A stretch of 64,000 nucleotides of DNA, taken from NCBI GenBank assembly GCA_016937175.1, contig JAFGWL010000056.1, forward strand, positions 25,685 to 89,684. The letters run 5' to 3'. The notes under the pieces are model-generated. The model was not told where the DNA came from, made no database searches, and saw only the letters and a list, made by a program, of their open reading frames with translations. Position numbers and translations under genes: made by a program. Positions 25,556 to 60,922 of this stretch are shown one piece after another; the stretch's first letter is position 1, and every line of letters starts with the position of its first letter. This DNA comes from Candidatus Mcinerneyibacteriota bacterium (GTDB taxonomy: Bacteria; Macinerneyibacteriota; Macinerneyibacteria; Macinerneyibacteriales; DSCS01).

Positions 25556-26056
25556 TCAAGCTGAAAGTGAAAAGGCCTTCTTGTCCCTTTGAGGGGAGAA
25601 GGGGCTTCTCTCTTTCAAGTGGACAGCCAGTGACGGGGTCTCCAAAAGAAGCTTGGCAAAGGAGATATTGAAAGACTCTTCACGGCTTGTCAGAAAGACT
25701 TCACGGAGACCGGCCACAGTTTCTGCAAATAAAAAGATATTGTCAAGCCTGAACGTCCGTCCGATAAGACGCAGATCAGCATAATCACTCTTTAACCGGG
25801 GCAAAAAACGCCTGGCATAATCTGTCACCCGGGGATTCTTTTCAAGATGAAGGAGGATCATTAAATAGGCCTCCCTCCCCGGTTCTTCCCCGGCTGATAT
25901 CCACTTCCATGTCCTCTCAGAATCCCGGTAAAACCACATGGGACAGGGATCTTCCTTAAAAAAGAGAGAAGCGCCCCCCCACTCGCCGGTAAGGGCAAAA
26001 TCCCAAAGAGCGGTCCTGCTGATATCTCCTCTTGTATCAAGAAGCGCTTCTTTCAT
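25556..26056 (-). CDS. Hypothetical protein (166 aa)
   Basis: Start MKEALLDT preceded by AAAGGAG. The track N-extension (start 26227) is in a different frame from the small upstream ORF and lacks an SD. Confidence 0.5.
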   Translation of the reverse strand: MKEALLDTRGDISRTALWDFALTGEWGGASLFFKEDPCPMWFYRDSERTWKWISAGEEPGREAYLMILLHLEKNPRVTDYARRFLPRLKSDYADLRLIGRTFRLDNIFLFAETVAGLREVFLTSREESFNISFAKLLLETPSLAVHLKERSPFSPQRDKKAFSLSA

Positions 26057-26193
26057 ATTGCGCTCCTTTTCCCTCTGGAAAAGGATTGCCTCTGCCCGCT
26101 GCTCCGGCGGATCATATAAACGACCTCCCTTGTGATCAACCCCCAGAGAAGAGCGGCTGTCCCCAATAAAATAAAAGCTAAAAGCATCATCAT
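26053..26193 (-). CDS. Small membrane peptide (46 aa) MMMLLAFILLGTAALLWGLITREVVYMIRRSSGQRQSFSRGKRSAI, translationally coupled to the downstream gene
   Basis: AAAGGAG SD. TM helix plus basic tail. Its stop TGA overlaps the ATG of 25556..26056 (ATGA). Confidence 0.4.
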   Translation of the reverse strand: MMMLLAFILLGTAALLWGLITREVVYMIRRSSGQRQSFSRGKRSAI

Positions 26194-26352
26194 TTCTCCT
26201 TTCTGTATTAATCATAAGGCCGCTCATTGATTCTTTGAAGATAGCAGTTTATTTATTTTAGAGTTCCCCTATTCTATTATATATTATTGTTATTCTAATA
26301 GTTACTTACTTTTATATTGTATTTAGGTTGCCATTTGCTGAACTTCTGAAAC

Positions 26353-29139: not shown

Positions 29140-30276
29140 TTATCTGTCCTCCAGGGTCGTTGTGTAGATGTAATCGCTTGTCGGCTTCTCTTTTCCCGTC
29201 TCTTTGTCAATCTCTGATATTGCCACAAAGACAAAGCGGTCATCGAAAGGGTAGAGACGGTAATCCTGATGAGGTTCGAGAAACTCGGCGTCCACTCTTT
29301 TGATATGCTTCAAAGTCTCCGTGTCGAAAATATCCACAAACCCCTTTTCCAACCCTGGGATAGGCAGGCCGTAATAGGCCTTTCTTCCATTTTCCCACTT
29401 GACTTCGTTTATCCCGGCGACACCTCTCAAAACATAGAGTTTCTCTCCTTTTACACACAAAGATGTCGCAGACGCCCCGCCGTTCGCTTCAAAAGAACCG
29501 TCGGGGAAACGGGAGATCTCCAGCGAGAGGAGCTCATTCAGGCCATCGTCATTATAAGCTGTCTTGACCAGTTTCAACTCGGGGCTATATTTTCTGATCT
29601 CATAAGCCCCCTTCAAGCCGAGCATGACAACATAGATGTTTCCTTTTCCATCTGTTGTATAACGGACAAGGTTTTCGAACATCTTCTCCACATCCAAGTC
29701 CGTTTCAGGGCTGATACGGCCCAGGGCATTGAATTGGCTGTCCGTCTTCACCACGGATCCGGGATAAGTCATCCCGATATAGTAATTGTCTCCATGCCTT
29801 GTCATCACACAGTTTCCAAAGGAGAGGCTGTAGGAGGCATCCTGGATGGGAATGGAATCCTCAAACTCTCCTTGGGGAGAGAACATCTCAATGGAATTTT
29901 TCTGACGGTCGATAAAATAGATCATCTCTCCATCCATCCCCATACCCGGAATCCAACTCCCCAGCTCTCCGGGCCCCTTCCCTGTATGAAGCTGGAAAGA
30001 TCCGATGTGCTCCAGCTCCTTATTGAAAAGAGCGACCTGGCGCATATCACTCTCATCGTGGATCACCACAGCCAGACGGTCTTTCCCATCTGATGAATGG
30101 AGATAAAAATCGATATTCCCCTCTTCAACCTTTAGTTTCTTTAACAGCGCTAATCTTCCGTCGGGTTTGAGAGCGATCCTATTATGAATGACTTTATCAT
30201 CGTTTCGGGATGCACAGCCGCAGAGAAAGAGGAGAAGCAGAGCAAAGAAAAAGAGAATAACATCTTTTTTGAACAT
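29140..30276 (-). CDS. Lipoprotein, predicted beta-propeller fold (378 aa)
   Basis: Signal peptide with lipobox LFLCGC; repetitive beta-strand-rich sequence. Confidence 0.6.
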   Translation of the reverse strand: MFKKDVILFFFALLLLFLCGCASRNDDKVIHNRIALKPDGRLALLKKLKVEEGNIDFYLHSSDGKDRLAVVIHDESDMRQVALFNKELEHIGSFQLHTGKGPGELGSWIPGMGMDGEMIYFIDRQKNSIEMFSPQGEFEDSIPIQDASYSLSFGNCVMTRHGDNYYIGMTYPGSVVKTDSQFNALGRISPETDLDVEKMFENLVRYTTDGKGNIYVVMLGLKGAYEIRKYSPELKLVKTAYNDDGLNELLSLEISRFPDGSFEANGGASATSLCVKGEKLYVLRGVAGINEVKWENGRKAYYGLPIPGLEKGFVDIFDTETLKHIKRVDAEFLEPHQDYRLYPFDDRFVFVAISEIDKETGKEKPTSDYIYTTTLEDR

Positions 30277-42886: not shown

Positions 42887-44095
42887 TTACTTGACAAAAA
42901 TGGCCAGAAAGACCCCTGCAGCAATGGCCGAACCGATGACTCCGGCGACATTGGGTGCCATAGCGTGCATAAGCAGATGGTTGTCTTTATCATACTGCCG
43001 GGCAAAATGCTGGACCACGCGGGCAGAATCGGGAACAGCCGAGACCCCGGCAGCCCCGATCAGGGGATTGATCTTTCTTTTTAAAAAGAGGTTCATGATC
43101 TTGGCGAAAAGAAGCCCTGAAGCTGTAGCCACAGCAAAAGAGAGAGCCCCCAGGCCGAAGATCTTCAAAGATTCCCATTTGATAAAATAACTGGCCTGTG
43201 TACTGGCGCCCACGGAAAATCCCAGAAGGATCGTCGCGATATCAAGGATAGCATTGGCTGCAGTCTTGGCCAGGCGTTCAGTTACTCCGCTCTCTTTAAG
43301 AATATTCCCGAACATGAGCATTCCTACCAGGGGAATGGCTCCGGGGGCTATAAGAGCTGATCCGATGAAAGCGATGACCGGAAAAGCGATGCGTTCCACT
43401 TTGGTCACTCTCCGGGGCGGCTGCATCCTGATAAGACGTTCTTTTTTTGTGGTCATCAGTTTCATGATAGGCGGTTGGATCACCGGCACAAGGGCCATAT
43501 AGGAATAGGCTGCGATGGCAATGGGGCCCAAAAGCGGCGGGGCAAGCTGAGAGGCTATAAAGATGGATGTAGGGCCGTCGGCTCCGCCGATGATCCCTAT
43601 AGAAGCCGCCTCCATGGGAGTGAAACCCAGATAGAGGGCTCCCAGGAAAGTGGCATAGATCCCCACCTGGGCCGCTCCGCCCAGAAGAACGGATTTTGGG
43701 CTTGATATCAGTGTAGAGAAATCGGTCAGAGCTCCGATGCCCAGGAAGATCAGCGGGGGAAAGATACCGGCCCGCACCCCCCAGTAGATATAACTGAAGA
43801 CACTGTCCATACTGAACCCGTTGGCCACCGTATCATAGACCCCGATAGGGATGTTGGGAGCACTGGCGATATTCCCAATGATGATTCCGAACCCGATGGG
43901 CAGGAGAAGAAGAGGCTCATATTTTTTGGCAATAGCCAGGTATATGGCCACGATTCCCACAACCAGCATGATGATATTCCCCCACTGCATATGGGCAAAC
44001 CCTGTATTCCCCAGGATGTCTTTGAAGAGGTCGATCAGATGTTCCAATGAAGCCGGAATCGCCATCTGGCTGCTTAAGGCAGAAATCACGTGCAT
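42887..44095 (-). CDS. mmdB: Na+-translocating decarboxylase beta subunit (OadB/MmdB/GcdB family)
   Basis: 402 aa integral membrane protein with characteristic beta-subunit sequence. Confidence 0.85.
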   Translation of the reverse strand: MHVISALSSQMAIPASLEHLIDLFKDILGNTGFAHMQWGNIIMLVVGIVAIYLAIAKKYEPLLLLPIGFGIIIGNIASAPNIPIGVYDTVANGFSMDSVFSYIYWGVRAGIFPPLIFLGIGALTDFSTLISSPKSVLLGGAAQVGIYATFLGALYLGFTPMEAASIGIIGGADGPTSIFIASQLAPPLLGPIAIAAYSYMALVPVIQPPIMKLMTTKKERLIRMQPPRRVTKVERIAFPVIAFIGSALIAPGAIPLVGMLMFGNILKESGVTERLAKTAANAILDIATILLGFSVGASTQASYFIKWESLKIFGLGALSFAVATASGLLFAKIMNLFLKRKINPLIGAAGVSAVPDSARVVQHFARQYDKDNHLLMHAMAPNVAGVIGSAIAAGVFLAIFVK

Positions 44096-44107
44096 GCTTT
44101 CTCTCCT

Positions 44108-44554
44108 TTATTCCAGGACGATGAGGATGTCTCCTTCATAGACAGAATCCCCGCGTCTGACCTTTATCTCTTTAACTGTCCCCTCCTGGGGCGACTGGAC
44201 TTCATTCTCCATCTTCATGGCTTCCATGATCAGGACATCCTGTCCGGCTTTCACCATGTCTCCCTCTTTGACAAGAATCTCCAGGATGAGTCCCGGAAGC
44301 GGCGCTGTCACATGGCCGGACCCTACGACCTCCCTGGGTTTCCTGAGAGTTTCTCCCTCTTTGGCAGCCGGAGCTGGCTGCCTTTTGAGAGGCGGAGCTG
44401 CAGGTCTGATATCCAGAGCCTTGGGCTCTCCCAGGTCTTTCAGCCCGACGGTATACTCGGTTCCGTTGACAGAAAGTTTCGCTTTTTCGGCGCCGAACTC
44501 CTGCACTTTGACTTTGTACTCTTTTCCGTTTATTTCAAGTGTGATTTCCTTCAT
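44108..44554 (-). CDS. mmdC: Biotin carboxyl carrier subunit of the decarboxylase
   Basis: EAMKMENE biotinyl-lysine motif. Confidence 0.85.
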   Translation of the reverse strand: MKEITLEINGKEYKVKVQEFGAEKAKLSVNGTEYTVGLKDLGEPKALDIRPAAPPLKRQPAPAAKEGETLRKPREVVGSGHVTAPLPGLILEILVKEGDMVKAGQDVLIMEAMKMENEVQSPQEGTVKEIKVRRGDSVYEGDILIVLE

Positions 44555-44562
44555 ACTCCCCC

Positions 44563-44967
44563 CTATACTCTATGGCCGTATTTCATGCCGGATTTCCAGG
44601 CAGTCTGTTCGCGGCCTTGCCGAAATGTTATTTTACTTTGCAGTTCATCCATATGGAGCCTTTTATAGAGCTCCACGGTGGCCCCGATGGCCGCCAGGAT
44701 GTCACTGTCCAGCTCATCCTGGACAATGATCCCCTTTTCCGCGGCTGCAGACGGTACAGTAACGGATTCTCCGGGGATATCGGTTTTGATCTTTTTAGCC
44801 GGGGAATGGGTAAAGACGATATTAAACAGGGCAATAAGCAGAGCGATGAGGATGAGCCCTGTGAAAACAGTCATAATACCGCTTAACGCCACATTTCCTC
44901 CATGGAACTTCTCCTGGATGGCCTGTTGCACCACGGGATCCTGGGTCATCTGTAAGAGCAGATACAC
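44563..44967 (-). CDS. Small membrane-anchored subunit (OadG/MmdD-like)
   Basis: N-terminal TM helix; size and position between the alpha and biotin-carrier subunits. Confidence 0.55.
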   Translation of the reverse strand: MYLLLQMTQDPVVQQAIQEKFHGGNVALSGIMTVFTGLILIALLIALFNIVFTHSPAKKIKTDIPGESVTVPSAAAEKGIIVQDELDSDILAAIGATVELYKRLHMDELQSKITFRQGREQTAWKSGMKYGHRV

Positions 44968-44982
44968 GATACTCCCCTCCCC

Positions 44983-46533
44983 TTACAACGGGATGTTCCC
45001 GTGTTTTTTCGGCGGGTTCTGATCCCTTTTATTCTGAAGCATCTCAAGCGCCTTGATCAGTTTATAACGTGTCAGCTTGGGTTCGATGACATCGTCCACA
45101 TCTCCCCGTGACGCTGCCACATAGGGGTTGGCGAACTTTTCCCGGTACTCCTCTTCTTTTTCCTGCAGCTTGGCTTCAGGATTCTCAGATGCAGCGATCT
45201 CTTTGGCAAAGACGATCTCGCTGGCTCCTTTGGGACCCATGACGGCGATCTCTGCAGAGGGCCAGGCAAATATCATGTCGCCGTTGAGCTGTTTGGAGTT
45301 CATGACGCAATAGGCTCCTCCGTAAGCTTTTCTTGTAATGACCGTGATCCGCGGGACAGTGGCCTCGGCATAAGCATAGAGCAGTTTTGCCCCGTGGCGG
45401 ATGATCCCGCCGTATTCCTGGACAGTTCCCGGCATGAAGCCCGGGACATCTTCAAATGTGACGATAGGAACATTGAACGCGTCACAGACCCGGACAAAAC
45501 GGGCTGCTTTAACAGAAGCATTGATATCAAGGACCCCGGCCAGATGTTTGGGCTGGTTGGCGACGATCCCGATGCTCTTTCCGTTAAGGCGGGCATATCC
45601 GATGACGATATTGGGTGCGAAATATTCCTGGACTTCTAAGAACTTCCCGTCATCCACGATACGGGTGATGATATCCTTGACATCGTAAGGTTTATTGGGG
45701 TTGTCAGGGATGATATAGTTGAGTTCTTCATCGACGCGGTCCACGGGATCCTCAGTCTTGACGACGGGAGGCTCCTCCATATTATTCTGGGGCAGATAAG
45801 AGAGCAGGACCCTGATTCCCTCAAAGAGGTCTTTTTCATTGTCATAGGTCATGTGAGTCACACCGCTTTTTGTCGCGTGGACCATGGCTCCGCCCAACTC
45901 TTCTTTGGTCACATCCTCGTGGGTGACGGCTTTGACCACTTTAGGGCCCGTGACAAACATCTGAGATGTATTCTGGGCCATAAAAATAAAATCTGTGACG
46001 GCGGGAGAATAGACCGCCCCCCCGGCTGCAGGCCCCACGATAGCCGTGATCTGGGGAACGACCCCCGAATACATGACATTGCGGTAGAAGATAGAGGCAT
46101 ATCCTGCCAACGCTCCGACTCCTTCCTGAATACGGGCTCCGCCGGAATCGTTGATCCCCACTACGGGAGCTCCCGTCTTGGCTGCCATTTCCATGATCTT
46201 AACGATCTTGGCCGCCACTGTCTCGGAAAGAGAACCGCCGATCACAGTAAAATCAAAAGAATAGACAAAGACCAGACGGCCTTCCACTGTCCCATATCCG
46301 GTGACCATGCCGTCACCATAGTATTTTTTCTTTTCCATGCCGAACTCGGTGCAGGTATGGGTTCGAAGGGCGTCGATCTCTTCAAAGCTCCCCTGATCCA
46401 GGAGCAGTTCAATGCGCTCCCGGGCGGTGAGTTTTCCTCTGGCATGCTGCTTAGCGATAGCCTCTGTCCCGCCGCCGGATCGGGATTTTTCCATTTTCTC
46501 TTTCAGTTCAAGGATTTTACGGTCCATGGACAT
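44983..46533 (-). CDS. mmdA: Methylmalonyl-CoA decarboxylase alpha subunit (carboxyltransferase)
   Basis: 516 aa acyl-CoA carboxyltransferase fold. Confidence 0.85.
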
Positions 46534-46537
46534 AATC

Positions 46538-46951
46538 TTACTCCTCTCCGGCCTGGCACAGTTCAGTCAGTACTTTGGCCGATGATTTTGGATGTAAAAA
46601 AGCTATACGGCTGCCGTGGGCGCCGCTTCGGGGTTCTTCATCGATGAGACGGACCCCTTTTCCCTTCATAATGCTTAACTCGTCTTCAATGTCGTCTGTG
46701 TTGTAAGCCAGGTGATGGATCCCTTCGCCCTTCTTTTCAATGAATTTTGCAATAGGGCTCTCTTCTGAAAGAGGTTCCAACAACTCGATCTTCACTTCAC
46801 CCACTTGAAACATAGCCACCCTGACCTTCTGCTCAGGCACTTCTTCCGTCCCTACCAGCTTCAATCCGAGGATATCCCTGTAAAAAGGGATTTGCTCCTC
46901 CAGCGAAGAGACAGCGACTCCTACATGGTCGATCTTCCTGATCATTGTCAT
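46538..46951 (-). CDS. Methylmalonyl-CoA epimerase (VOC/glyoxalase fold)
   Basis: 137 aa; IDHVGVAV...EGIHHLAY. Confidence 0.8.
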
Positions 46952-47904
46952 TCACTCTCCTTTTTTAAAAAAAACCGTAAACGCTCATTTATAAAATGGT
47001 ATGGTTTGACGTCCTTATTATAGATCATTTCAGCCCATTCGCCCACATTATTATAAAAATCCATTTTTCTGTCAAGTAATTCGTGGATTTTAAGCGAAAA
47101 TATCCTGAGAAGCTCCTTCCGGATGCGCTCTTTTCTCTTTTCCCTGAGCTCCCCGCTCTCCTCCAGCTGACCATAGAGCCTTTCCATCTCATTCCGGAGA
47201 TGATCCAGTCCCTTCTTCATCTTGGCAGAGACCAGGCAGACAGGGTTCATCTTCTCTTTTTCACCGGCATATTTGAACCCCAGGACATATTCCACTTCTG
47301 TGCGAAGCTTTTCAGCTCCCTCTTTGTCGCTCTTATTGATGACAAAAATATCTCCGATCTCCATGACTCCGGCCTTCATCGCCTGGATCTCATCCCCCAT
47401 GCCGGGGACAAGGACAAGGAGGACTAGGTCGGTGAGCTCGATGATATCCACTTCTGTCTGGCCCACTCCGATGGTCTCCACGATAATCGTGTCAAATCCG
47501 GCGGCGTCCAGGACCTTGACTGCGTCGAGCGTCGCGCCGGAAACTCCCCCGAGATGGCCCCGGGAAGCCATGGAGCGGATAAAGACTCCGTCATCCTCTG
47601 CATGGGACTGCATCCTGAGCCGGTCTCCCAGCAGGGCCCCGCCCGTAAAGGGAGAGCTGGGGTCCACGGCCACAACTGCGACTTTCCGGCCCCTATCCCG
47701 CTCACAGGAGATGAGAAGATCAGCGAGTGTGCTCTTGCCGGCGCCGGGCGGGCCTGTAATCCCCCAGACCTGCGCCTTCCCCGTGTGGGGAAAGAGAGCA
47801 TCGATCAACTCCTCGCGCCCTTTTATGTTATTTTCCACCAGAGAGATTCCACGGGCGATGGCCCGGATCTTTCCCCCGATGATATCACGGGCCAACTCGG
47901 TCAT
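46948..47904 (-). CDS. meaB: MeaB/ArgK-type G-protein chaperone of methylmalonyl-CoA mutase
   Basis: P-loop [13 protein letters not shown]; 4-nt overlaps with both neighbours. Confidence 0.85.
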
Positions 47905-48308
47905 TGATTCCGTTCATCCCTTTTCGATTCGATAAAATCCACGATCTCCTGTATCGGTGTTCCCGGAGTGAAGACAGCCCGAACTCCTTTTTCCTTCAAG
48001 AAAGGAATATCCTCTTCGGGGATGACACCTCCCCCGAAAACGATGATATCGGCAGCATCATTCTCACGGAGAAGATCCACGATCCGGGGAAAGAGTTCGT
48101 TATGAGCCCCTGAAAGAAGACTCAGCCCGACAAAATCAACATCCTCCTGCAGGGCCGTCCTGACAATGCTTTCGGGAGTCTGCCGGATGCCTGTATAGAT
48201 GACTTCATACCCTTCATCTTTCAGAGCCCGGGCGACATATTTTGCTCCTCTGTCATGGCCGTCCAGGCCGGGTTTGGCGATCAGTATCCTTAATTTTCGT
48301 TTACTCAT
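47901..48308 (-). CDS. Methylmalonyl-CoA mutase B12-binding subunit
   Basis: DxHxxG cobalamin-binding motif ([12 protein letters not shown]). Confidence 0.85.
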
Positions 48309-48319
48309 TTTTTCCCCCT

Positions 48320-49993
48320 TTACAGAACAATAGACTCTTTATATTCTCCGTAGACTTCCCTCAGGATATTGCATATCTCCCCCAGAGAGGCATATTCCCG
48401 TACAGCATCGATGATGAGCGGCATCAGGTTCACATCAGGCTTCGCTGCGGCGTCTTCCAGGGCTTTCAACGCCTTTTTAACCGCCTCATTATCACGTTCG
48501 GCTTTTGTCCGGGCCAGTTTTTTGACCTGAAGGTCCCGCAAAGCGGGATCGACTTTGAGAAGGTCTCTGGGAGCTTCCTCTTTGATCGTAAACTTGTTGA
48601 CACCCACAACGATACGGTCACCTTTTTCCACATCCTTCTGGTAACGGTAGGCGGCATCCTGGATCTCTTTCTGTATATAACCCTTTTCGATAGCTTTTAC
48701 CATTCCGCCCATCTCTTCGATCTTTTCGATATAATCCATGGCTTCGTTGTAGATGCGGCTGGTCAGGGCTTCTACATAATAGGAACCGGCCAGGGGGTCC
48801 ACGGTATTGGCCACCCCGGACTCATGGGCCACGATTTGTTGCGTCCTCAAAGCAATACGGACAGAATCCTCTGTGGGCAGGGCCAGAGCCTCGTCTCTGG
48901 AATTTGTATGAAGGCTCTGGGTCCCTCCCAAAACAGCGGCCAAAGTCTGGATCGCAACACGGACGATATTGTTGTCCGGTTGCTGAGCGGTCAGGGTCGA
49001 ACCTCCTGTCTGTGTATGAAAACGCAGCATCATGGACTTCGAGGACTTTGCAAGAAACTTCTCTTTCATGAGCGTCGCCCATATCCTCCTGGCAGCCCGG
49101 TATTTGGCTACTTCTTCCAGAAGGTCGTTATGAGCATTGAAGAAAAAGGAGAGACGGTCGGCGAACTGGTCTACATCGAGCCCTGCCCTGACTGCGGTCT
49201 TGACATATTCCATGCCGTCGGCGATGGTAAACGCCACTTCCTGGACAGCCGTAGACCCCGCCTCCCTGATATGATAACCGGAAATGCTGATAGTGTTCCA
49301 TTTGGGGACCTCTTTTGAGCAGAACTCAAAGATATTCGTGATCAGGCGCATGGAGGGCTCCGGAGGAAAGATATAGGTCCCCCGGGCGATATACTCTTTC
49401 AGGATATCATTCTGTATCGTCCCGCGGAGCTGATCCCGGGAGACGCCCTGCTTTTCTCCTACGACGATATACATGGCCAGAAGGACCGAGGCAGGAGCAT
49501 TGATGGTCATGGATGTGGAGACTTTGTCCAGGGGGATCCCCTCGAAAAGGATCTCCATATCTTTGAGTGTATCGATGGCGACACCCACTTTTCCCACTTC
49601 GCCCACACTCATGGCATCATCCGAGTCATACCCGATCTGCGTCGGCAGATCAAAAGCCACGGAGAGGCCGGTCTGGCCTTGCTCCAGCAAATATTTATAC
49701 CTTCTGTTGGATTCTTCAGCTGTGCCGAATCCGGCATATTGCCGCATGGTCCAGAAACGGCCCCGGTACATGGTAGGCTGGACACCCCTTGTGAAGGGGT
49801 ATTCTCCGGGAAAGCCGACTTCATCCAGCCAGCGCTCTTCGTCAAAGGACTCAGGAGAATAGGCACGGTCTACGGGGATATCCGATCCCGTAACAAAGAT
49901 CTCTTTCCGTTCCGGGAAACGGCTGATGACTTTATCTACGGTTTTTTCCTCCCACTTTCTGCGGGCTTCCTTGATTTTCTTATACTCTTCCAC
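48320..49993 (-). CDS. Methylmalonyl-CoA mutase catalytic (large) subunit
   Basis: 557 aa; TIM-barrel mutase N-domain. Confidence 0.9.
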
Positions 49994-50003
49994 GATAGCC
50001 TCC

Positions 50004-51203
50004 TTACTTTTCCTGTGTCAGCTCAAGGGTCTCTTTGGCGATCATCAACTCTTCGTTGGTGGGGATGACCAGGACTTTGATGCGGCTTTCCGGAGCGGAG
50101 ATATCCACTCTTTTCCCCCGCACCTTGTTCTTCTCCTTGTCGATTTTAATCCCCAAAAACTCCATTCCGCTGCAGATCTCTTCTCTGGTCTCCCAACCGT
50201 TCTCCCCGATACCGGCGGTAAAGACAAGGGCATCGGCCCCGTTCATGACAGCCAGATAGCCCCCTATAAACTTTTTAGCGTTATAATGGACAAGGTCCAG
50301 GGCCAGCTGGGCCCTCTTGTCTTTCTCGTTCCAGGCCTTCTGCTCGATGTCCCGCATATCGCTCGAGATCCCCGAGACGCCCAGCATCCCGCTTTTTTTG
50401 TAAATAAGGTCATGCAGGCTCTCAGGCGTGAAATCCCCTGTATTGAGAAGGTGAGTCAATATTCCCGGATCGAAATCACCGGCCCGGGTACCCATGGGGA
50501 TCCCGCACATGGTACTGAAACCCAGGGAAGTGTCCACAGAATGGCCGTTCTGAACGGCGCTGAAAGATGTCCCGTTCCCCATATGGCAGGTAATGACCTT
50601 GATCTCCTCAAAGGGGCGCCCCAGCATAGCTGCCGCTTCCAGAGCCACATAATGATGGGATGTCCCGTGAAATCCGTACCTGCGTATCCCGTACTGCTCG
50701 TAAAGCTCATAAGGCAGAGCATACATATAGGCCTTTTCGGGCATCCTTGAATGGAAAGAGGTATCAAAGACGATGACATTGGGGACCTGCGGGATCAGCT
50801 CCAGCATAGCCTTGACACCCACCAGGTTGTGCGGATTGTGAAGAGGAGCCAGATGATTCAGCTTTTCCAGAGCGGGAATATCCTCAGCAGTGACCACAGC
50901 AGAATCTTTATACTCTTCTCCTCCGTGGACATAACGATGTCCCACAGCATCGATCTCATTGAAATCGGAGATGACTCCGTGTTCTGAATCCGTCAGAATA
51001 TCGAGAACGGCAGAGAGCCCTTCCTTATGTCCGGGAATCTGAAGGGTTTTTTTGTGTTGATCTCCATCCGTCTTCCAGGAGATGGCCGATTCTTCCAGGC
51101 CGATCCTCTCCACAAGTCCCCTCAGCAAGACCTCTTCGCTTGACATGTCAAGCATCTGGAACTTGATGGATGAACTTCCTGAATTCAATACCAAAATTTT
51201 CAT
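50004..51203 (-). CDS. ackA: Acetate (propionate) kinase
   Basis: [17 protein letters not shown]-terminal motif. 399 aa. Confidence 0.9.
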
Positions 51204-52534
51204 AAATCTTCCTCCAATTGGCTGTTTCGTTTCAACTTAATCACAACTTCTCCGTCAATCGTATCCCGGTTGAAATCGGCAGAAAAGAAGAGTCTTGAGA
51301 AATTTGCATAGACACCTTCATTCTTATAGACTTCATTGAGATAGAGACTGTCCATATAGAGACTGATATGGGAGCTACGGTATATCAGGCCCCGCACAAA
51401 ATCCCCTGCCCGGGAAGAGGGTAAGATCCCCGTCTCCAGGCCCCGGTTATAGATTTTTAAGCTGTGCAGGCTGTCAAAAAAAAGAAGAAAATCCCCCCGG
51501 GCGTAATAGAAGGGCCTTTTCATCTCCTCCCACTTTTCTTTAAACAAGTTCTTAACGATGAGGCCGGCTATCCCTGTCACATCCACAGTCCAGGCCCGAA
51601 GTCCGTCGAAATCATCTTCCCTGAACTCAACAGGGTAGCGTTTTTCCAATTCTCCGGCGATCCGCCCCATCTCTTTCAATCCGGTTTCTTTCTCCATGAC
51701 GGCGAAATAATCATCCACATCGCGGGCTCCGATCACGGCTCCCGCTTCTAAAAGGGGCATGATCTGTTTCTCGATATCGATGCCTGTCTTTTCATAGATC
51801 TTTCTTCGGGTCTCCATGAACTTCTGAAAAAGGGCACTCCTCTGAAACATCTTTCTGATACGGGCATAATGAGCTTCGAAATCCGCCATGTTGACCTTGA
51901 GTATAAAGTCGGAATCGGAAGGGACCAGGGCCAGACACTTCTCCGCCCGGGCCTGCTGCGCAGCATCCCCTATGGGGTTCTTCATGTGATAGGAGATTTT
52001 AAGCGCGTTGTGCCGGGATAAGACATTGACTTCACCCCAGAGGGCTTCTCCGAGTTCCTCCTCTTTCAAAAACATCTCAGGCCTCTTCAGGACAAACCGG
52101 GCATCCCCTCCTCCTTTGAGCTTTCCTGTCTCTTCCCTGTGTGATCCGATATAGCCCCCCGTCATGACATAGTCTTTATTGGTCGTAATACAGAGTACAT
52201 TCCCTTCCACCGGACCCAGCGAGGAAAAGAGCGGCGCTAAAAATGAGAGTTCGATGAAAATATAGGTGTTTTTATCCTGATCCAGGGCCAGATAAAAGTC
52301 TTTACCAGGGAGCCATCTGATCCACTTCTTACTCTTGAATTCTCCTGCATAACGGTCAACAAGAGGGGAATCAAGTTTGAGAAAAGACTTGAAAGAGCGG
52401 ACTTTGGCAAAAGCCACGGTGTCCTGAGGGAAAAAATCAGGAGCGCTCCGGCGGTTAAAAAGATAGTACGCCCCGATGGTTAAGAGAATAAGGAGAATTA
52501 GGGTCAGGGCAACCCCGGGAATTTTTTTTTTCAT
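51200..52534 (-). CDS. Hypothetical N-terminally anchored protein (about 444 aa)
   Basis: Start MKKKIPGVALTLILL with GGGGA SD. The track start at 52555 is a TTG abutting the tRNA. 4-nt overlap with ackA. Confidence 0.55.
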   Translation of the reverse strand: MKKKIPGVALTLILLILLTIGAYYLFNRRSAPDFFPQDTVAFAKVRSFKSFLKLDSPLVDRYAGEFKSKKWIRWLPGKDFYLALDQDKNTYIFIELSFLAPLFSSLGPVEGNVLCITTNKDYVMTGGYIGSHREETGKLKGGGDARFVLKRPEMFLKEEELGEALWGEVNVLSRHNALKISYHMKNPIGDAAQQARAEKCLALVPSDSDFILKVNMADFEAHYARIRKMFQRSALFQKFMETRRKIYEKTGIDIEKQIMPLLEAGAVIGARDVDDYFAVMEKETGLKEMGRIAGELEKRYPVEFREDDFDGLRAWTVDVTGIAGLIVKNLFKEKWEEMKRPFYYARGDFLLFFDSLHSLKIYNRGLETGILPSSRAGDFVRGLIYRSSHISLYMDSLYLNEVYKNEGVYANFSRLFFSADFNRDTIDGEVVIKLKRNSQLEEDL

Positions 52535-52555
52535 TATTTTCCCCGCCAAAAGCAA

Positions 52556-52628
52556 TGTGCCCGAAAGGAGTCGAACCTTCAGCCTACAGATCCGGAGTCT
52601 GTCGCTCTATCCATTGAGCTACGGGCAC
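52556..52628 (-). tRNA. tRNA-Arg (anticodon CCG)
   Basis: Hand-folded cloverleaf: acceptor GUGCCCG/CGGGCAC, D-stem GCUC/GAGC, anticodon stem ACAGA/UCUGU with loop CUCCGGA, T-stem GAAGG/CCUUU with loop UUCGACU. No encoded CCA. Confidence 0.85.
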
Positions 52629-54078: not shown

Positions 54079-55542
54079 CTATTCTCCTTTTTTTTCATTT
54101 CTCATTCTTATAAAAGCATCTTTTCCCATGAGTTGTCCGGTCAAAAGAGGATAGGCTTCATGGAGTTTCTCCCGTATCATCTCTGACAAGGCCCGGATCC
54201 CCCATTGGGCATGGGTGTCGCTCCGGAGACGGACAAAATGGTACCATTCGCGGAGGTTGGCTTTGACCACGACTTTTCGTCTGTGGGCATTGGTAAGGAC
54301 ATAGCCTGCCCCGTTCTTATCGTATAATCTCACTTTCTCATAAAATTCATTGACTCTTTCGATCTCTTCCATGAAAGAGCCTTCTTCCCCTATCTCTTTG
54401 ATGGAATCGGGGACCGTAACCCCCAGGCCGGGAGTGTATTCCCCCGTTAGCCGGCTCATCAGGCGATGCCTTTTCAGCTGGGCATAACAGGAGGCCGAGG
54501 CCAGGACTTCAAATGTCGCTGTGGCCAGTTCAAAGGCCCTGTCCACGCTGTCATAAAAGTTGATCCCCTTCATCGCCTCCCTGATAACGCTCTTCTTGTC
54601 AATGGTTTTGATATTGTCCAGAAGGGCCTGATAATCATGGCCGGAATCTTCAAAGACCAGTCCGGCCACTACCTTATCCTCACCGTCTGACGTCCATGAA
54701 ACCAGACGGACGATATCGGGGCCGGGATCCAGTCGTTGTGTTTTGACTGGGAATCCTCCCCGCCAGGCTTTCACATCATATTCTCCGGGCTCATGGAAAA
54801 CGACCAGCGAGGGAACCTTGTCCCGGACCAGGCTGAATATCTCGTCTCCCAGCATGCGGACCTCATACAACGGGGAGGCTGCCATCTGACGAAGTATATA
54901 TTCGAGGTTTCTGGCGTTGACTGTCATCCCCATCTGCGATGTGGTGGCCAGAGAGAGGATATACCGGGCGTCCTCTTTCGCCTTTCCCGTCAGCTCCCGT
55001 TCTGAAATCCGGGGTTCCTTCTCTTTGAAATATTCGAGGAGAGCGGTGTAGTACCGGTTATAGAGGTTGTTTTCTCTCTCCAGGAGTTCCCTGAACTCCC
55101 GGGTAAGCTCCTTATCGTCTTTGATCTCATCGGGAGTGATAAAATCTTTTCCAAGTTTAATATACCTTTGTGATTTTTCTGTAAAAGAGAGGAGGCGATG
55201 CTCCTGGAGCCATTCTGAAGCCAGGCGGGAGATTCCGAGAAGATCAAAATTGAAGACGGCATGCTCGGCAATAGATCCGTGCCCCATCCCGTAGATGATC
55301 TTTTCATTGGACCTCCGGGCCTTTTCGACTTCCCGGACAGCCTGGCTTCTCAGCTCCTCAACGGAGAGAGGCGACCGGCTGATGCGGGCATAGGCTGCTG
55401 AGATGGTTTCAGGGGTAAGAGCTCCGTTTTTCAGCAGGCGGATCAGTTCATCCCGGGATCTTTCGTCCTCTTCCAGCAGGGCTTTTTCCATAAGTTGCAG
55501 AAGTGACATGTCAATATTCATGCCGGCAAGAATAACCTTCAT
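54079..55542 (-). CDS. thyX: Flavin-dependent thymidylate synthase, long (double-length) form
   Basis: ThyX signature-like EHRLLSFTEKSQRY in the first half and KRHRLMS in the second half. 487 aa versus about 220-280 aa for canonical ThyX. Confidence 0.7.
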   Translation of the reverse strand: MKVILAGMNIDMSLLQLMEKALLEEDERSRDELIRLLKNGALTPETISAAYARISRSPLSVEELRSQAVREVEKARRSNEKIIYGMGHGSIAEHAVFNFDLLGISRLASEWLQEHRLLSFTEKSQRYIKLGKDFITPDEIKDDKELTREFRELLERENNLYNRYYTALLEYFKEKEPRISERELTGKAKEDARYILSLATTSQMGMTVNARNLEYILRQMAASPLYEVRMLGDEIFSLVRDKVPSLVVFHEPGEYDVKAWRGGFPVKTQRLDPGPDIVRLVSWTSDGEDKVVAGLVFEDSGHDYQALLDNIKTIDKKSVIREAMKGINFYDSVDRAFELATATFEVLASASCYAQLKRHRLMSRLTGEYTPGLGVTVPDSIKEIGEEGSFMEEIERVNEFYEKVRLYDKNGAGYVLTNAHRRKVVVKANLREWYHFVRLRSDTHAQWGIRALSEMIREKLHEAYPLLTGQLMGKDAFIRMRNEKKGE

Positions 55543-55611: not shown

Positions 55612-56889
55612 TCAATACCCCTGCATGGCTTTCCCCAGGGAGAAGATTGGCATGTAGATAGCTAAGGTAAGGATCAGGACCACAACGGCCATAAAAATGA
55701 TAAGCATCGGTTCGATGATCTGGCTGATCCTGTCCACCTTCTTATTGATCTCATTGTCATAAAACTGGTTGAACTTCAACAGCATATCGTCCAGGGAACC
55801 GGTCTCTTCCCCTGTCCCCACCATCTGAACAAGGATAGAGGGGTAGATGGGGCCCTCTTCCTGCATACTGGCATAGATGGTATATCCCTGCTGTATTTTT
55901 TTCCTGACTCGGTCCAGAGAGCGCCTGTAGATCTCATTATTGATGATATTGCGCGACAGTTCCAGGGATTCGAGGATATTGATCCCTGCAGTCATAAGCA
56001 ACCCGAAAGTCTTGGAAAAATTTACCAAAATCCCCATCTGATAAATAGGGCCGAGATTGGGAAATTTGAGCAGGAACTTATGATAGTAGAAACGAACAGC
56101 CTCATTTGTCCTGATAAGATACTTCATCAATATCACAAGGGCGATGATGAGGATGAGTACAAAGAAGAAATTCTTCCTCATGAATTCCGCTACGGACATG
56201 ATCATCAGAGTGATGGGAGGGAGTTTTGCCCCCATGTCCGAATAAATCGTCTTGAATTTAGGGATGACAAAAAGCATAACGCCCAGAGTGGCCAGGATAA
56301 TAAAGGAAAAGACAAAGAGAGGGTAGCGGGTAGCCGATTTGATCTTGTCGCTGATGTCTTTCAACCGCTCCATATACTCGCTTATACTGATAAGGGTCAC
56401 GTCAAGGCCGCCCGAAGCCTCGGCGCTTTTTATCATGTTGACAAAAAGGCGGTTAAAGACTTTGGGATATTTGGCAATGGAATCGGAAAAAGCGACTCCT
56501 CCCCGGATATCGTCGATGACTTTTCCCAGGATCTCTCGGAACTCCTGGTTTTTCTCGTCCCGCGTCAATGTCTCCAGAGACTGCATAATGGGAAGCCCTG
56601 CGCTGATCATGGAACCTAATTGCCGGGAAAACATAATAAGCGTGGTAGCATCGACTGAGGTCCCTGATATATTGATCCGGTTAAGGCTTTTGATAAAATC
56701 GATCAGCGAAGGTTTCGAAGAGGCACCCTTTTCATGGATATCCAGGATCGTCTTGTCTTTGTCCCTGAGCATGGAGACAAGCTCTTCGCGGTTCACGGCA
56801 AAGATATTCTGCCTGATCTTCTTCCCGGAAGGTTCAAAGTAGGTCACACGGTATTCAGGCATATCACTCTTCCCCGAAGGTGGCTGCAA
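55612..56889 (-). CDS. gspF: Type II secretion / type IV pilus platform protein (GspF/PilC family)
   Basis: 425 aa, 3-TM GspF topology. Overlaps gspE by 26 nt. Confidence 0.85.
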   Translation of the reverse strand: MQPPSGKSDMPEYRVTYFEPSGKKIRQNIFAVNREELVSMLRDKDKTILDIHEKGASSKPSLIDFIKSLNRINISGTSVDATTLIMFSRQLGSMISAGLPIMQSLETLTRDEKNQEFREILGKVIDDIRGGVAFSDSIAKYPKVFNRLFVNMIKSAEASGGLDVTLISISEYMERLKDISDKIKSATRYPLFVFSFIILATLGVMLFVIPKFKTIYSDMGAKLPPITLMIMSVAEFMRKNFFFVLILIIALVILMKYLIRTNEAVRFYYHKFLLKFPNLGPIYQMGILVNFSKTFGLLMTAGINILESLELSRNIINNEIYRRSLDRVRKKIQQGYTIYASMQEEGPIYPSILVQMVGTGEETGSLDDMLLKFNQFYDNEINKKVDRISQIIEPMLIIFMAVVVLILTLAIYMPIFSLGKAMQGY

Positions 56890-58576
56890 AGACCTCTTCC
56901 ACAGTGGTCACTCCCCTTTCGACTTTTTCCATGCCGTCATCACGCATGAGAAGCATTCCCTCACTCAAGGCCTCTGCTTTGAGTTCATCGGAGTCGGCAT
57001 TACGGTAGATCATCTTACGCAGGGATTTGCTGATGGAAAGGATCTCAAAGATCCCCACACGCCCTGAATAGCCTGTATTATTACAGGCCAGACAGCCCTG
57101 TCCTCTGTGGAGGACAGTATCTTTTTTCAGGCCGTACTTCTCCAAAGCCTCACTGTCAGCCACATAGGCTTCCTTGCAGCTGTCACAGACGCGCCGCACC
57201 AGGCGCTGGGCCACCACCATATTGAGGGAAGAGCCCACCAGGTAGGGAGGGATCCCCATATCAAGGAGCCTGGCCACTGTGGCAGATGCATTATTCGCAT
57301 GGATGGTGGAAAGGACCATATGTCCCGTAAGAGCCGCCCGGATGGCTATCTCAGCTGTTGCCTTGTCCCTGATCTCGCCTACCATGATCACATCTGGGTC
57401 CTGACGGAGCATGGAGCGGAGGCCGGCGGCAAAAGTGAGTCCTGCTTTCTCATTCACCTGGACCTGATTGACATTGTCCATGTTGTATTCAATGGGATCC
57501 TCGATGGTGATGATGTTCTTGTCAGGGCTCACCAATTCTTTTAAAATAGCATACATAGTGGTCGTCTTGCCGCTTCCGGTGGGGCCGGAAACCAGGATAA
57601 TGCCATAGGGTTTCTCGAAGTTTTCGATAAACTGGGGCAGAGCCCTGTTGGAGATCCCGAGGCTTTCCACGTCCAGCAGACCCATAGACTTGTTCAGGAT
57701 CCTCATGACGATCTTTTCCCCGTAACTTGTGGGAAGGGTAGAGACGCGGATATCCACATTGTAATTCTTATGCCGGAATGAGAAACGCCCGTCCTGAGGG
57801 ACCCTCTTTTCGGCAATATTGATATTGGCGATGATCTTGATCCGGGAGACAATGGCCGCCTGAAGCTTTTTGGGCGGAGTGACGATCTCCAGAAGTTTCC
57901 CGTCGATACGGAACCTGACCTTCAGCATATACTCGAAGGGTTCGATATGGATATCTGTAGCGTTCTTGTTGATGGCCTCGATGAGAATATAGTTGACCAG
58001 ACGGATGGCCGGAGCCTCATCTTCTTCGGAGACGACCATCTCAGGTTCTGTCTCCTCCTCTTTTTCAAAGGAGATCTCCCCTTCGGTCTGCATCTGGATC
58101 TCCTTGACCTTCTGGATCTCAGAATAGAGCCGTTCGATGCTTGCGGCGATATCCTCTGCGTCAGCAAGCATGGTGACGATATTCATAGAGACGATACTTT
58201 TAAGATTTTCCAGGAGGATGATATCTTCCGGATGTTCTGTGGCTACATAGAGTTTATCCGTACGCTGGTCATACCTGATGGGAAGGACGTTATACTTCTG
58301 GGCTACTTCACGGGGGATCTTATAGACGACGTCGGGGCTGATATTGATGAACATGTCCCGTGTGACCAGATCCACATTAAGCTGTTCAGCAAGGACGGCA
58401 AGAAAATCATCCTTGTCGACAAGGCCCAGCTCGATGATAGCCTTCCCCAGCTTGATCCCCTCTTTTTTCTGGTAGGAGAGGGCATTTTCCAGCTGCTCCT
58501 CATTGATGAGCCCTTTGCTGACAAGAAGCTCTCCGACCCGTGAATAGACATTTTTATATCGTTTGGGATCTGCCAT
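56864..58576 (-). CDS. gspE: Type II secretion / type IV pilus assembly ATPase (GspE/PilB family)
   Basis: Walker A GPTGSGKTTT; N-terminal GSPII_E_N-like domain. Confidence 0.9.
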   Translation of the reverse strand: MADPKRYKNVYSRVGELLVSKGLINEEQLENALSYQKKEGIKLGKAIIELGLVDKDDFLAVLAEQLNVDLVTRDMFINISPDVVYKIPREVAQKYNVLPIRYDQRTDKLYVATEHPEDIILLENLKSIVSMNIVTMLADAEDIAASIERLYSEIQKVKEIQMQTEGEISFEKEEETEPEMVVSEEDEAPAIRLVNYILIEAINKNATDIHIEPFEYMLKVRFRIDGKLLEIVTPPKKLQAAIVSRIKIIANINIAEKRVPQDGRFSFRHKNYNVDIRVSTLPTSYGEKIVMRILNKSMGLLDVESLGISNRALPQFIENFEKPYGIILVSGPTGSGKTTTMYAILKELVSPDKNIITIEDPIEYNMDNVNQVQVNEKAGLTFAAGLRSMLRQDPDVIMVGEIRDKATAEIAIRAALTGHMVLSTIHANNASATVARLLDMGIPPYLVGSSLNMVVAQRLVRRVCDSCKEAYVADSEALEKYGLKKDTVLHRGQGCLACNNTGYSGRVGIFEILSISKSLRKMIYRNADSDELKAEALSEGMLLMRDDGMEKVERGVTTVEEVFAATFGEE

Positions 58577-58584
58577 GTCATCTC

Positions 58585-59175
58585 CTATCGGCCGGATATT
58601 CCGGCGGTCTTCGCTTTGAGCAGTATAAGTTTGAACAGCGAGACTTTTGTATAATCATAGGCCGGGGTCCGGAGGAGTTTTTTCATCCCGGAAAGGCTGA
58701 TCTGAGGGTAAGTGGCCAGGATCCGCTCGACTTTTTCCCGGAGCGTGAGGCCTTTGACATCGGTAAAGTCTTCTACTGTATCGAGATTGATATTTGTGAT
58801 ATCCGTAGGGGAGAGCGAAGAGTCGTAAAAGGAGAGGACCGCATCAGCCGGCTCACGGTAGTAGGAGAGGATCCGGTCGTACTCCAGAAGATGAAAAGCC
58901 TTTTCAGGGTCTTTACGAAGAGCTGTGATCCTGATATCACCACCCCCCGCCTTGATATTGTTCAGGATCCCAATAATGGTGTTCCATCCTACGGCAGCCA
59001 CGAACTCCACATCAGACATATCCAGGACGAATTGGAGTTTTTCCTCGGCCAGGAGCCGTGTAAAGCGCTGGATAAGGATATTGGCAGTCCCTGAGTCCAG
59101 ATATCCCTGAAGGGCTATGACCGTGACCTTTTTCCCCTTCCCGGCTTCTTTTATCTCTTTGATAAGCTTTTCCAT
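58585..59175 (-). CDS. STAS-domain (anti-sigma-factor-antagonist-like) protein with a C-terminal extension
   Basis: SpoIIAA-like pattern VTVIALQGYLDSGTANIL...FVLDMSDVEFVAAVGWNTIIG. Lies 8 nt upstream of gspE. Confidence 0.65.
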   Translation of the reverse strand: MEKLIKEIKEAGKGKKVTVIALQGYLDSGTANILIQRFTRLLAEEKLQFVLDMSDVEFVAAVGWNTIIGILNNIKAGGGDIRITALRKDPEKAFHLLEYDRILSYYREPADAVLSFYDSSLSPTDITNINLDTVEDFTDVKGLTLREKVERILATYPQISLSGMKKLLRTPAYDYTKVSLFKLILLKAKTAGISGR

Positions 59176-59241
59176 AAAGCCCCTTTCATCGTATGGTTTT
59201 TCTCTTATATCATATCATGAAGGGCTCTCTTTTTCAACCGT

Positions 59242-60162
59242 TTACTCGATGATGACCTGTATGCTGCTGGGATCGAGGTCAATAAGGCTGACTGCTTCGG
59301 GATGGCCGATCTCCGGAACCAGATTGTATGTCCCCTTCTCGTAGTCTCTCAGGTCCAGACTGACACTAATACTCTCCCGTAGCGCTTCTGTCTCCATGGA
59401 GACGGGGGCTTCGAATTTGAGAGAGACTACCCGGGGGAATATAAGAGAATAGGAGCCGGTGACCCGGACAGGGATATCTCTGATTTCGGCTGTTTTTAGT
59501 TTGACAATCTCGATCTGGGCGAAGATCTTATCTTCTTCATCTCTGAGAAGAGTGGTATTCTCCGGAATATCAAGGGTAACTTCTTTGCTGAAGGACTCGG
59601 TCATCCCCTCCAGATCAAGGGGATAGGTCTCCAGGATCCCTACGCTTTTGGGCCCCCTTATCTTCACCACTGAAGGCGTCACGATAATCGGCTGCATAAG
59701 CTTATACCCTTTTGGAGGCGTTCCCCGGGAAACGATCCGAATGGGGACATATTTCTCTTCTTTCTCATCAATAACGACTCTGACGGAATCATGACGCTCG
59801 CTGATCTGAAATAGGCTGAGGTTTTCGGTCCCCATTATATTTCTTTTATCCAGGGAAAGTTCATATTTACCCTTTTCAAAACCAGTCAGTTTGACTTCAT
59901 AATAGAGCTCTTTTTTCATCAATTTTATAATATCGCTACCCCGGGCCTCCACACGGACGATGACCTCCTCTGGATCCATCGAAGCGATGACGAGACTCTC
60001 TTGTAACCCTGAATAGCGGACAGAGAGGTGAAAAGCTTTCGTAACGACCCGGTTATGTACTAAAGAAAACCAGAGAAGCAGAGAGATGAAGAAAGCCAAA
60101 ATCTTATATAGGGTGTTCCTGAAGAAAACGCCGGTAGGACGCTTAAGGAGTCTCTTTCCCAT
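59242..60162 (-). CDS. cdaR: CdaR/YbbR-domain regulator of diadenylate cyclase
   Basis: N-terminal TM plus repeated YbbR-like beta domains. Overlaps cdaA. Confidence 0.75.
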   Translation of the reverse strand: MGKRLLKRPTGVFFRNTLYKILAFFISLLLWFSLVHNRVVTKAFHLSVRYSGLQESLVIASMDPEEVIVRVEARGSDIIKLMKKELYYEVKLTGFEKGKYELSLDKRNIMGTENLSLFQISERHDSVRVVIDEKEEKYVPIRIVSRGTPPKGYKLMQPIIVTPSVVKIRGPKSVGILETYPLDLEGMTESFSKEVTLDIPENTTLLRDEEDKIFAQIEIVKLKTAEIRDIPVRVTGSYSLIFPRVVSLKFEAPVSMETEALRESISVSLDLRDYEKGTYNLVPEIGHPEAVSLIDLDPSSIQVIIE

Positions 60163-60922
60163 CGCCCTCCTCCCTTTTTTCCTTCTTCAGTGTCTCCTGA
60201 CCCAGCCTTTCCTTCTCTATGAGAAGGTCATAGAGGACATCCTTGACCTCATTTCTGTTCATCCCTCGGGTGAGGAACTGTCCCCGATGAGCAAAGGAGA
60301 TCCGCTTTGTCTCCTCGGAGATCACGATGACCCCTGCATCGGTGAGCTCACTCAGTCCTACCGCAGCCCTGTGCCTCGTCCCGAACTCGCGGGGGATATT
60401 GGCCCCTTCCGGGAGCGGCAGAACACAGCGGGCAGCATAAATACGTCCGTTACGGATAACCACGGCCCCGTCATGAAGAGGAGTGTTCAACGAAAAGATG
60501 GTCACAAGAAGCTCACGGGTGACAGCTGCATCCAGGATGACGGCATTCTCTATGTAATTCCTGATATCAGTGTTCTGCTCGAAGACAATAAGGGCTCCTA
60601 TTCTCCGTGAAGACATCTCCATGACAGCTTCGATGATCTCATTGATATAAGCCTCCTCTTCGGAGACAGCCTTCCTCATGATGAGGGAAAAGAGCGGCAG
60701 CTTTGAGACCTTATCCAGGATGTTGCGAAACTCAGGCTGGAATAAAAGGAGGAAGAAGACTCCCCAGATGACGAGAAACAGGCTGCTGAGATAGTGGAGC
60801 ATATGAAGCTGTAGCCACTGCGCTGCAAAGAAGAGAAGAAGTATGATCATCAGGAGGATGGTCATCTGCAAAGCCTTTATCCCCTTAAACGTCAGGAGGA
60901 GAAAATAGATAATAGAGGCCAC
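60143..60922 (-). CDS. cdaA: Diadenylate cyclase CdaA (membrane DAC domain)
   Basis: 3 N-terminal TM helices; DAC motifs TPLHDGAVVIR and RHRAAVGLSE. Confidence 0.85.
   Translation of the reverse strand: MASIIYFLLLTFKGIKALQMTILLMIILLLFFAAQWLQLHMLHYLSSLFLVIWGVFFLLLFQPEFRNILDKVSKLPLFSLIMRKAVSEEEAYINEIIEAVMEMSSRRIGALIVFEQNTDIRNYIENAVILDAAVTRELLVTIFSLNTPLHDGAVVIRNGRIYAARCVLPLPEGANIPREFGTRHRAAVGLSELTDAGVIVISEETKRISFAHRGQFLTRGMNRNEVKDVLYDLLIEKERLGQETLKKEKREEGDGKETP

Follow-up and report, generated by a model that had tools for sequence, protein, structure and literature searches.

Why should a gene for a STAS-domain protein stand directly in front of the genes for a PilB/GspE-like extension ATPase and a PilC/GspF-like platform protein, and what might such a protein do there? 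The question is raised by a 64,000-nucleotide (64-kb) stretch of DNA from Candidatus Mcinerneyibacteriota, which we call the window. A sequence-only reading of the window had proposed that the STAS gene shares a transcript with the gspE/gspF pair and exerts partner-switch-type control over the machine that the pair serves. We consider below what the gene encodes, how it is arranged with its neighbors, how far this arrangement extends to other genomes, and whether the protein could still operate as a partner switch.

The STAS protein and its C-terminal domain

The gene and the parts of its product are as follows.

58585-59175, minus strand: STAS-CTD open reading frame (196 aa, start ATG, stop TAG)
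58831-59175, minus strand: STAS domain, residues 1-115 (Pfam PF01740 and AF2)
58747-58830, minus strand: linker, residues 116-143 (low-confidence coil in AF2, block pLDDT 55-81)
58588-58746, minus strand: C-terminal three-helix domain with basic tail, residues 144-196 (AF2 pLDDT ~84)

Existing annotation already names the gene a "STAS domain-containing protein" or an "anti-anti-sigma factor", and the domain call is therefore not new. The call, which the sequence-only reading had also made, holds up against both profile and fold. PF01740 matches residues 16-111 of the 196-aa protein with 48.7 bits (E 6.8e-13; gathering cut-off 22.6), and an AF2 model with a mean pLDDT of 87.8 has a SpoIIAA-like alpha/beta STAS fold at residues 1-115. 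This model was built on a 62-sequence alignment; a shallower alignment of 11 sequences gave a pLDDT of 46 and was discarded. The narrower NCBIfam families are not reached, TIGR00377 (ant_ant_sig) scoring 42.9 against a cut-off of 53.45 and TIGR02886 scoring 30.8 against 114.75. A spurious open reading frame at 58585-59175 is ruled out by orthologs at 30-96% identity and by pN values well below pS. Comparison with a 77%-identical ortholog, at which distance synonymous sites are near saturation, indicates purifying selection on the STAS domain (pN 0.098, pS 0.636) and on the C-terminal domain (pN 0.251, pS 0.709).

The C-terminal extension that had been put at about 85 aa is indeed present, at a length of 81 aa. 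In the AF2 model it consists of the linker, residues 116-143, and three helices, at residues 145-155, 161-168, and 180-194, with a tail rich in Lys and Arg. The linker carries an acidic motif around residue 132, LDTVEDFTD in the window copy. In the clade alignment (A4) Asp132 is invariant and the V-E-D-F-T that follows is partly conserved across the short clade described below, as D132-x-[VI]-[ED]-[DN]-[FL]-[TS]; the motif looks like a short docking motif. Two broader alignments, A2 and A3, show that the C-terminal domain is kept in every full-length relative and that Trp64, Gly79, and Leu168 are invariant. We use STAS-CTD for the family so defined, in which a STAS domain with an S-S-x-G-W motif is followed by a C-terminal helical domain of ~55 aa; the window copy departs from the motif and reads A-A-V-G-W.

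What the C-terminal domain does is less obvious. The domain of the window copy has no Pfam match, its profile finds only chance-level matches among PDB sequences (E 0.6 or worse), and a search with the domain alone against 5.8 billion proteins yielded no further architecture, its only matches being two short fragments. One could imagine that the protein is a STAS-sensor transcription factor, whose C-terminal helix-turn-helix (HTH) binds DNA and autoregulates the operon or controls other genes while the STAS domain senses a ligand or partner. The three helices and the Lys/Arg-rich tail would suit such a role. Moreover, the C-terminal domains of distant family members weakly match HTH_21 (4/10) and HTH_Tnp_Tc3_2 (4/10), at E values of 0.003-0.13, and one relative, P0194, has a precomputed PF13276 match. 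However, all of these HTH matches fall far below gathering scores and none is obtained for the domain in the window, which also finds no PDB counterpart by sequence, as noted above. The terminal "...KRYEFA" segment of the distant members is missing from the clade of the window, and the pilB-linked STAS proteins of Planctomycetota, to which we return below, are without any such domain. We therefore consider a DNA-binding role unlikely.

Organization of the operon

Immediately downstream of the STAS gene, on the same strand, lie the genes for the ATPase and the platform protein, and upstream of it lies a candidate promoter.

59209-59237, minus strand: sigma-70-like promoter candidate, TTGAAA, 17 nt, TG-extended TATGAT (TTGAAA-17-TGnTATGAT; consensus scan)
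58577-58587, minus strand: STAS stop codon TAG and 8-nt junction with the gspE Shine-Dalgarno sequence (TAGGAGATGAC, then ATG; read from the sequence)
56864-58576, minus strand: GspE/PilB-like extension ATPase, 570 aa (Pfam T2SSE 463 bits, MshEN 45.5 bits)
58382-58540, minus strand: tandem MshEN c-di-GMP-binding motifs of the ATPase, residues 13-36 and 42-65 (NF053729 and regular expression)
55612-56862, minus strand: GspF/PilC-like platform protein, 416 aa (Pfam T2SSF 183 bits, two stretches)

After the STAS stop codon (TAG, 58587-58585) come the spacer GAGATGAC (58584-58577) and then the gspE ATG at 58576, a gap of exactly 8 nt, as had been read previously. The gspE Shine-Dalgarno sequence, AGGAG, overlaps the STAS stop codon, and across all relatives of the short clade the junction measures between -4 and +10 nt. 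These features point to probable translational coupling between the STAS and ATPase genes.

The shared transcript proposed in the sequence-only reading fares well by the same comparison. A terminator or promoter of its own could have cut the STAS gene off from gspE, but a scan of the junction found no terminator-like site, and the promoter candidate lies on the far side of the STAS gene, in the 66-nt gap that separates it from cdaR. The candidate scores 10/12 on the consensus scan and has a TG extension in addition. An equivalent arrangement, TTGAAA/TTGATA-17-TGnTAnAAT, is found upstream of the STAS gene in all five diverged loci compared (L001, L006, L009, L010, and L011), including L009, which keeps it although its upstream genes differ. 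An Rfam search of the operon leader found no riboswitch. Thus, STAS-CTD, the PilB/GspE-like ATPase, and the PilC/GspF-like platform protein probably form a three-gene operon, with STAS-CTD in first position and a sigma-70-type promoter of its own.

The ATPase reaches 623.3 against TIGR02538 (PilB; cut-off 675.65) and 598.5 against TIGR02533 (GspE; cut-off 630.25), and because neither equivalog cut-off is attained, we do not assign it to a type IV pilus (T4P) or a type II secretion system (T2SS). Two CxxC pairs, at residues 464 and 495, are typical of extension ATPases. The platform protein likewise scores below both NCBIfam cut-offs (PilC 309.7, GspF 295.4). Its start has been placed at 56862, where an ATG lies one base after the gspE stop; the open reading frame list gives a TTG at 56889, and the downstream ATG is the probable start because the 416-aa orthologs begin 1 nt after the gspE stop.

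The N-terminus of the ATPase is more informative. NF053729 (NCBIfam) matches it with 61.4 bits (cut-off 38), and a regular expression finds the MshEN motifs RVGELLVSKGLINEEQLENALSYQ and KLGKAIIELGLVDKDDFLAVLAEQ, of 24 residues each, separated by 5 residues. This is the published arrangement, in which two 24-residue RLGxx(L/V/I)(L/V/I)xxG(L/V/I)(L/V/I)xxxxLxxxLxxQ motifs are separated by a 5-residue spacer (PMC5013675). The N-terminus thus matches the c-di-GMP-binding motifs as a matter of sequence, and the ATPase is predicted to bind this ligand.

The window also encodes two paralogous giant proteins of 1591 and 1579 aa (5468-10243 and 12142-16881, both on the minus strand), each with TPR repeats and, at its C-terminus, a GGDEF diguanylate cyclase domain, with most of each protein left without a domain assignment. 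Their presence fits a c-di-GMP-responsive ATPase, and they could be a source of c-di-GMP for it.

Conservation of the pairing in the STAS-CTD family

An exhaustive HMMER scan of 1.84 billion representative proteins returned 1278 STAS matches, a small set of which aligns over both domains; profile matches span residues 1-190 in P0011-P0014, P0041, P0046, and others, and a word-indexed search added Calditrichota-type members to the family. Within it, the HMMER scan places only five 50%-identity clusters, at 30-96% identity, in a short clade of 194-196 aa: that of the window and P0011-P0014 (43-30% identity). In all five clusters the next gene is an ortholog of the ATPase, 59-92% identical, at a distance of -4 to +10 nt, and the junction survives a change of upstream genes in L009 and of downstream genes in L011. 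By gene order, then, the STAS-ATPase pairing is conserved in every detectable member of the short clade. Part of this conservation is plain synteny, because four of the five lineages also keep the cdaA-cdaR pair directly upstream.

Outside the short clade the company changes. The gene before members of 230-240 aa, some of which bear the names Calditrichaeota or Caldithrix, invariably encodes a HATPase_c_2-HAMP-SpoIIE protein of 1076-1176 aa, a textbook partner-switching kinase/phosphatase. The surrounding block is conserved around these relatives (L004, 4649-12786; L094, 3412-12013; L097, 3731-12584). It begins with a giant Big_1/FlgD_ig surface protein, a TPR/UPF0164 protein, and the HATPase_c_2-HAMP-SpoIIE fusion, followed by STAS-CTD and then by DUF4159, a DUF4175-like protein of ~1130 aa, and a Patatin-POTRA-Omp85 protein. 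A further variant, of 339 aa with an N-terminal extension of ~140 aa, was seen in the one such locus examined (L005, 8001-12227), where it adjoins a Poly_export (Wza-like) gene and a gene for a 795-aa Wzc-like AAA_31 protein; this single locus suggests polysaccharide export as a third kind of output for the family. From its three contexts, the STAS-CTD family appears to be derived from partner switching, with the link to the ATPase specific to the clade of the window.

Independent occurrence in Planctomycetota-type loci

Is the pairing peculiar to this family? As a background sample we took 80 diverse pilB/gspE loci from among the matches listed, at 39-47% identity to the GspE of the window and none from its lineage. 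A STAS open reading frame lies within 4 kb in 3 of these 80 listed loci. Each comes from Planctomycetota and has its STAS frame directly upstream of, and on the same strand as, an MshEN-type pilB. Next come pilC and pilM, joined in L081 by pilN and pilO. The Planctomycetota STAS is a plain protein of 110 aa that keeps the Ser ("VDSxG") and lacks both the C-terminal domain and the G-W motif, which points to a separate recruitment. It follows as well that the linkage of STAS to pilB does not depend on the C-terminal domain.

A metagenome scan with the Planctomycetota STAS extended this result. Among the best 15 of 80 listed relatives (30-94% STAS identity), pilB lies downstream in 14 of the 14 informative loci, a set that includes three near-identical copies and one gap of ~535 nt, and pilC follows pilB wherever the contig is long enough; pilB was found in none of the 65 remaining loci among the matches listed. 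The gene upstream of STAS encodes a PAS-HisKA-HATPase_c histidine kinase in eight loci, and an HD-GYP and GGDEF pair occupies this place in three. No response regulator or RsbW-type kinase gene was seen adjoining the STAS gene in these loci (L075, L081, L088, and L099-L113). Divergence is much faster in the STAS protein than in the ATPase, here as in the lineage of the window. Gene order thus supports an independent STAS-pilB pairing in Planctomycetota-type loci, and the linkage of STAS to gspE in the window, for which a neighborhood survey had been advised, both holds across the short clade and recurs with a different STAS orthogroup.

These comparisons also bear on the genes upstream of the operon.

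59242-60922, minus strand: cdaA (diadenylate cyclase) and cdaR (YbbR) pair, directly upstream of the STAS operon

The pair occupies the same position in three other lineages and is absent from it in L009; it and the STAS operon may be separate units or may be read through together. Such proximity in four of five lineages might mean that the STAS protein regulates the upstream c-di-AMP module (CdaA/CdaR), or that it is an unrelated passenger kept by synteny only. Yet L009 has other upstream genes and still keeps the STAS-gspE junction, a conserved promoter lies between cdaR and the STAS gene, which is itself 8 nt from gspE or overlaps it, and an unrelated STAS orthogroup pairs with pilB in loci that have no cdaA or cdaR. 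We regard either possibility as very unlikely.

The phospho-acceptor position

Partner-switch-type control calls for a phosphorylatable Ser or Thr, which in SpoIIAA stands at the N-terminus of helix alpha2 (Ser58), and for a cognate kinase and phosphatase.

58993-58995, minus strand: codon GCC, Ala61, at the position of the SpoIIAA phospho-acceptor Ser58 (alignments)

Ala61, in the context AAVG within F-V-A-A-V-G-W, aligns with Ser58 of SpoIIAA both in an HMMER alignment to SpoIIAA (1auz) and, by BLASTP, in an alignment with "VDSKG", the motif of the Planctomycetota STAS. Among the 62 aligned family members, 57 have Ser in this column; the five Ala all belong to the window's own cluster (>=77% identity), in which Ala60 and Ala61 are both invariant, and the sister clusters P0011-P0014 retain the Ser. 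As judged by alignment, the canonical phospho-acceptor has been lost in the cluster of the window organism, and the canonical serine switch would accordingly be absent from it. Non-canonical phosphorylation, for example at Ser54 or Thr66, may occur.

The enzymes of a switch are missing from the neighborhood as well. A search for the cognate RsbW-like kinase and PP2C phosphatase came back empty, with no HATPase_c_2 (RsbW-like) or SpoIIE (PP2C) gene in the 64-kb window or within 8-10 kb in the short-clade relatives.

A classical partner switch could nevertheless operate at a distance, with an unlinked RsbW-type kinase and PP2C phosphatase, an unphosphorylated form that sequesters a kinase or an anti-sigma factor, and an operon position that reflects co-expression only. 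The fold of the protein is closest to those of SpoIIAA and of RsbV in kinase complexes, P0011-P0014 keep the Ser, and distant members of the family adjoin HATPase_c_2-HAMP-SpoIIE proteins, so that the earlier proposal of partner-switch control retains some merit as a statement about the origin of the family. As an account of the protein in the window it meets three difficulties: the phospho-acceptor is replaced by Ala61, itself preceded by Ala60, in every member of the cluster; neither kinase nor phosphatase genes lie nearby; and TIGR00377 and TIGR02886 score below their cut-offs. The first two of these together argue against it, and we think that a classical switch is improbable here.

Other genes of the window

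The remaining content of the window offers several observations in their own right. A 487-aa ThyX (54079-55542, minus strand) contains two Thy1 stretches and is thus a tandem-duplicated flavin-dependent thymidylate synthase; it is conserved in the 77%-identity relative. A cluster for methylmalonyl-CoA mutase, MeaB, epimerase, carboxyltransferase, and Na+-decarboxylase (42887-49993, minus strand) provides an ordinary metabolic context. The sole Rfam match in the window is a single tRNA gene (52556-52628, minus strand). Several sizeable open reading frames, all on the minus strand, have no Pfam match: 51200-52555 (451 aa), 29140-30276 (378 aa), 25556-26227 (223 aa), and 4255-5067 (270 aa). The first of these is kept beside a beta-CASP gene in loci L001-L003 of the 77%-identity relative (443 aa, likewise with no Pfam match).

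Discussion

We place at about an even chance the explanation that the MshEN-type ATPase has acquired a STAS protein derived from partner switching, as an accessory or regulator that works independently of phosphorylation. On this account the family would have started out within a HATPase_c_2/SpoIIE partner-switching module, as its STAS substrate or antagonist, a role that it still appears to have in Calditrichota-type genomes, and STAS-CTD, a two-domain cytoplasmic protein, would then have been captured by the ATPase operon in the Mcinerneyibacteriota lineage. There, as gene order suggests, it would exert its effect by binding the ATPase or the ATPase-platform complex directly, through the face of helix alpha2 that bears the invariant Trp64 beside the former phospho-site. 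The Ala61 protein could not be switched off by canonical serine phosphorylation and would serve in this organism as a constitutive accessory subunit or gate, its effect set by the level of expression and combined with the c-di-GMP input received through the MshEN domain. Where sister lineages have retained the Ser, unlinked enzymes may still regulate the protein by phosphorylation. Against this account it may be said that no gene for a pilin, a secretin, or PilMNO accompanies the pair in the 64-kb window, and that a regular expression for prepilin motifs found none there.

A broader reading, which we offer tentatively and hold to be possible rather than probable, is that MshEN-type PilB/GspE ATPases have, in STAS-fold proteins, an unrecognized class of dedicated cytoplasmic partners. 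Such proteins would have been recruited at least twice, as STAS-CTD in Mcinerneyibacteriota and relatives and as the plain 110-aa protein in Planctomycetota, downstream of PAS histidine kinases or HD-GYP/GGDEF enzymes, and would gate the ATPase alongside c-di-GMP, with the Ala61 protein as a natural "locked" form.

Several known systems bear on the capture that we favor. First, the SpoIIAA/RsbV anti-sigma-factor antagonists are structurally nearer to the window protein than MlaB is. The window protein differs from them in having Ala61 in place of the phospho-Ser and an additional 81 aa of linker and helical domain, and its gene shares an operon with a pilus/secretion ATPase instead of keeping company with sigma-factor genes. 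Genes for a kinase, a phosphatase, or a sigma factor are absent from its surroundings.

Second, STAS proteins are known to control secretion, motility, or biofilm formation rather than a sigma factor, as in BtrV/BtrW/BtrU of the Bordetella type III secretion system, HsbA of Pseudomonas, and SypA of Vibrio fischeri. In these systems the phospho-Ser is retained and genes for a dedicated kinase and phosphatase are present, and we know of none of them reported beside a PilB/GspE ATPase.

Third, the nearest precedent for the proposed action is MlaB, the STAS subunit of the MlaFEDB phospholipid ABC transporter, which binds the ATPase MlaF through a helical face and which MlaF requires (PMC7367683). 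Thr52 of MlaB, the residue at the phospho-site, lies at the center of this interface, and its phosphorylation has not been demonstrated (PMC7367683). The likeness is that of a single STAS protein encoded together with a transport ATPase. It is an analogy of working rather than of membership, and binding to the ATPase is here suggested by gene order and coupling alone.

Finally, accessory inputs to the N-terminal region of PilB-type ATPases have been described. PilZ-FimX-PilB is reported to provide such a cytoplasmic input (PMC8389850), and MshE-type control by c-di-GMP acts on the same region (PMC5013675). The window ATPase resembles these in having both MshEN motifs, and HD-GYP and GGDEF genes precede the STAS-pilB pair in the three Planctomycetota-type loci mentioned above. 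The accessory protein differs, being of the STAS fold and not a PilZ or EAL domain.

Known regulators of the ATPases of T4P and T2SS include c-di-GMP (through MshEN), PilZ/FimX, and polarity proteins, among other such inputs. The searchable literature describes no STAS protein in this role: full-text searches, with most subscription journals outside their coverage, returned no paper linking STAS proteins with PilB, GspE, or MshE. A Synechocystis preprint that they did return concerns an anti-anti-sigma domain on a glycosyltransferase and is unrelated to PilB. What is new here, at the level of comparative genomics, is a new partner for STAS partner proteins and a new two-domain architecture. 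If the proposed contact were to fail, what is left would be an ordinary STAS gene with an unexplained neighbor. As matters stand, a conserved, coupled STAS gene before pilB/gspE in two unrelated lineages is a concrete candidate for a regulator of these ATPases, and Ala61 is in effect a Ser-to-Ala "experiment" of nature, bearing on what phosphorylation does. More generally, the case would illustrate how a secretion-type ATPase can take over a component of partner switching that once served a kinase/phosphatase module.
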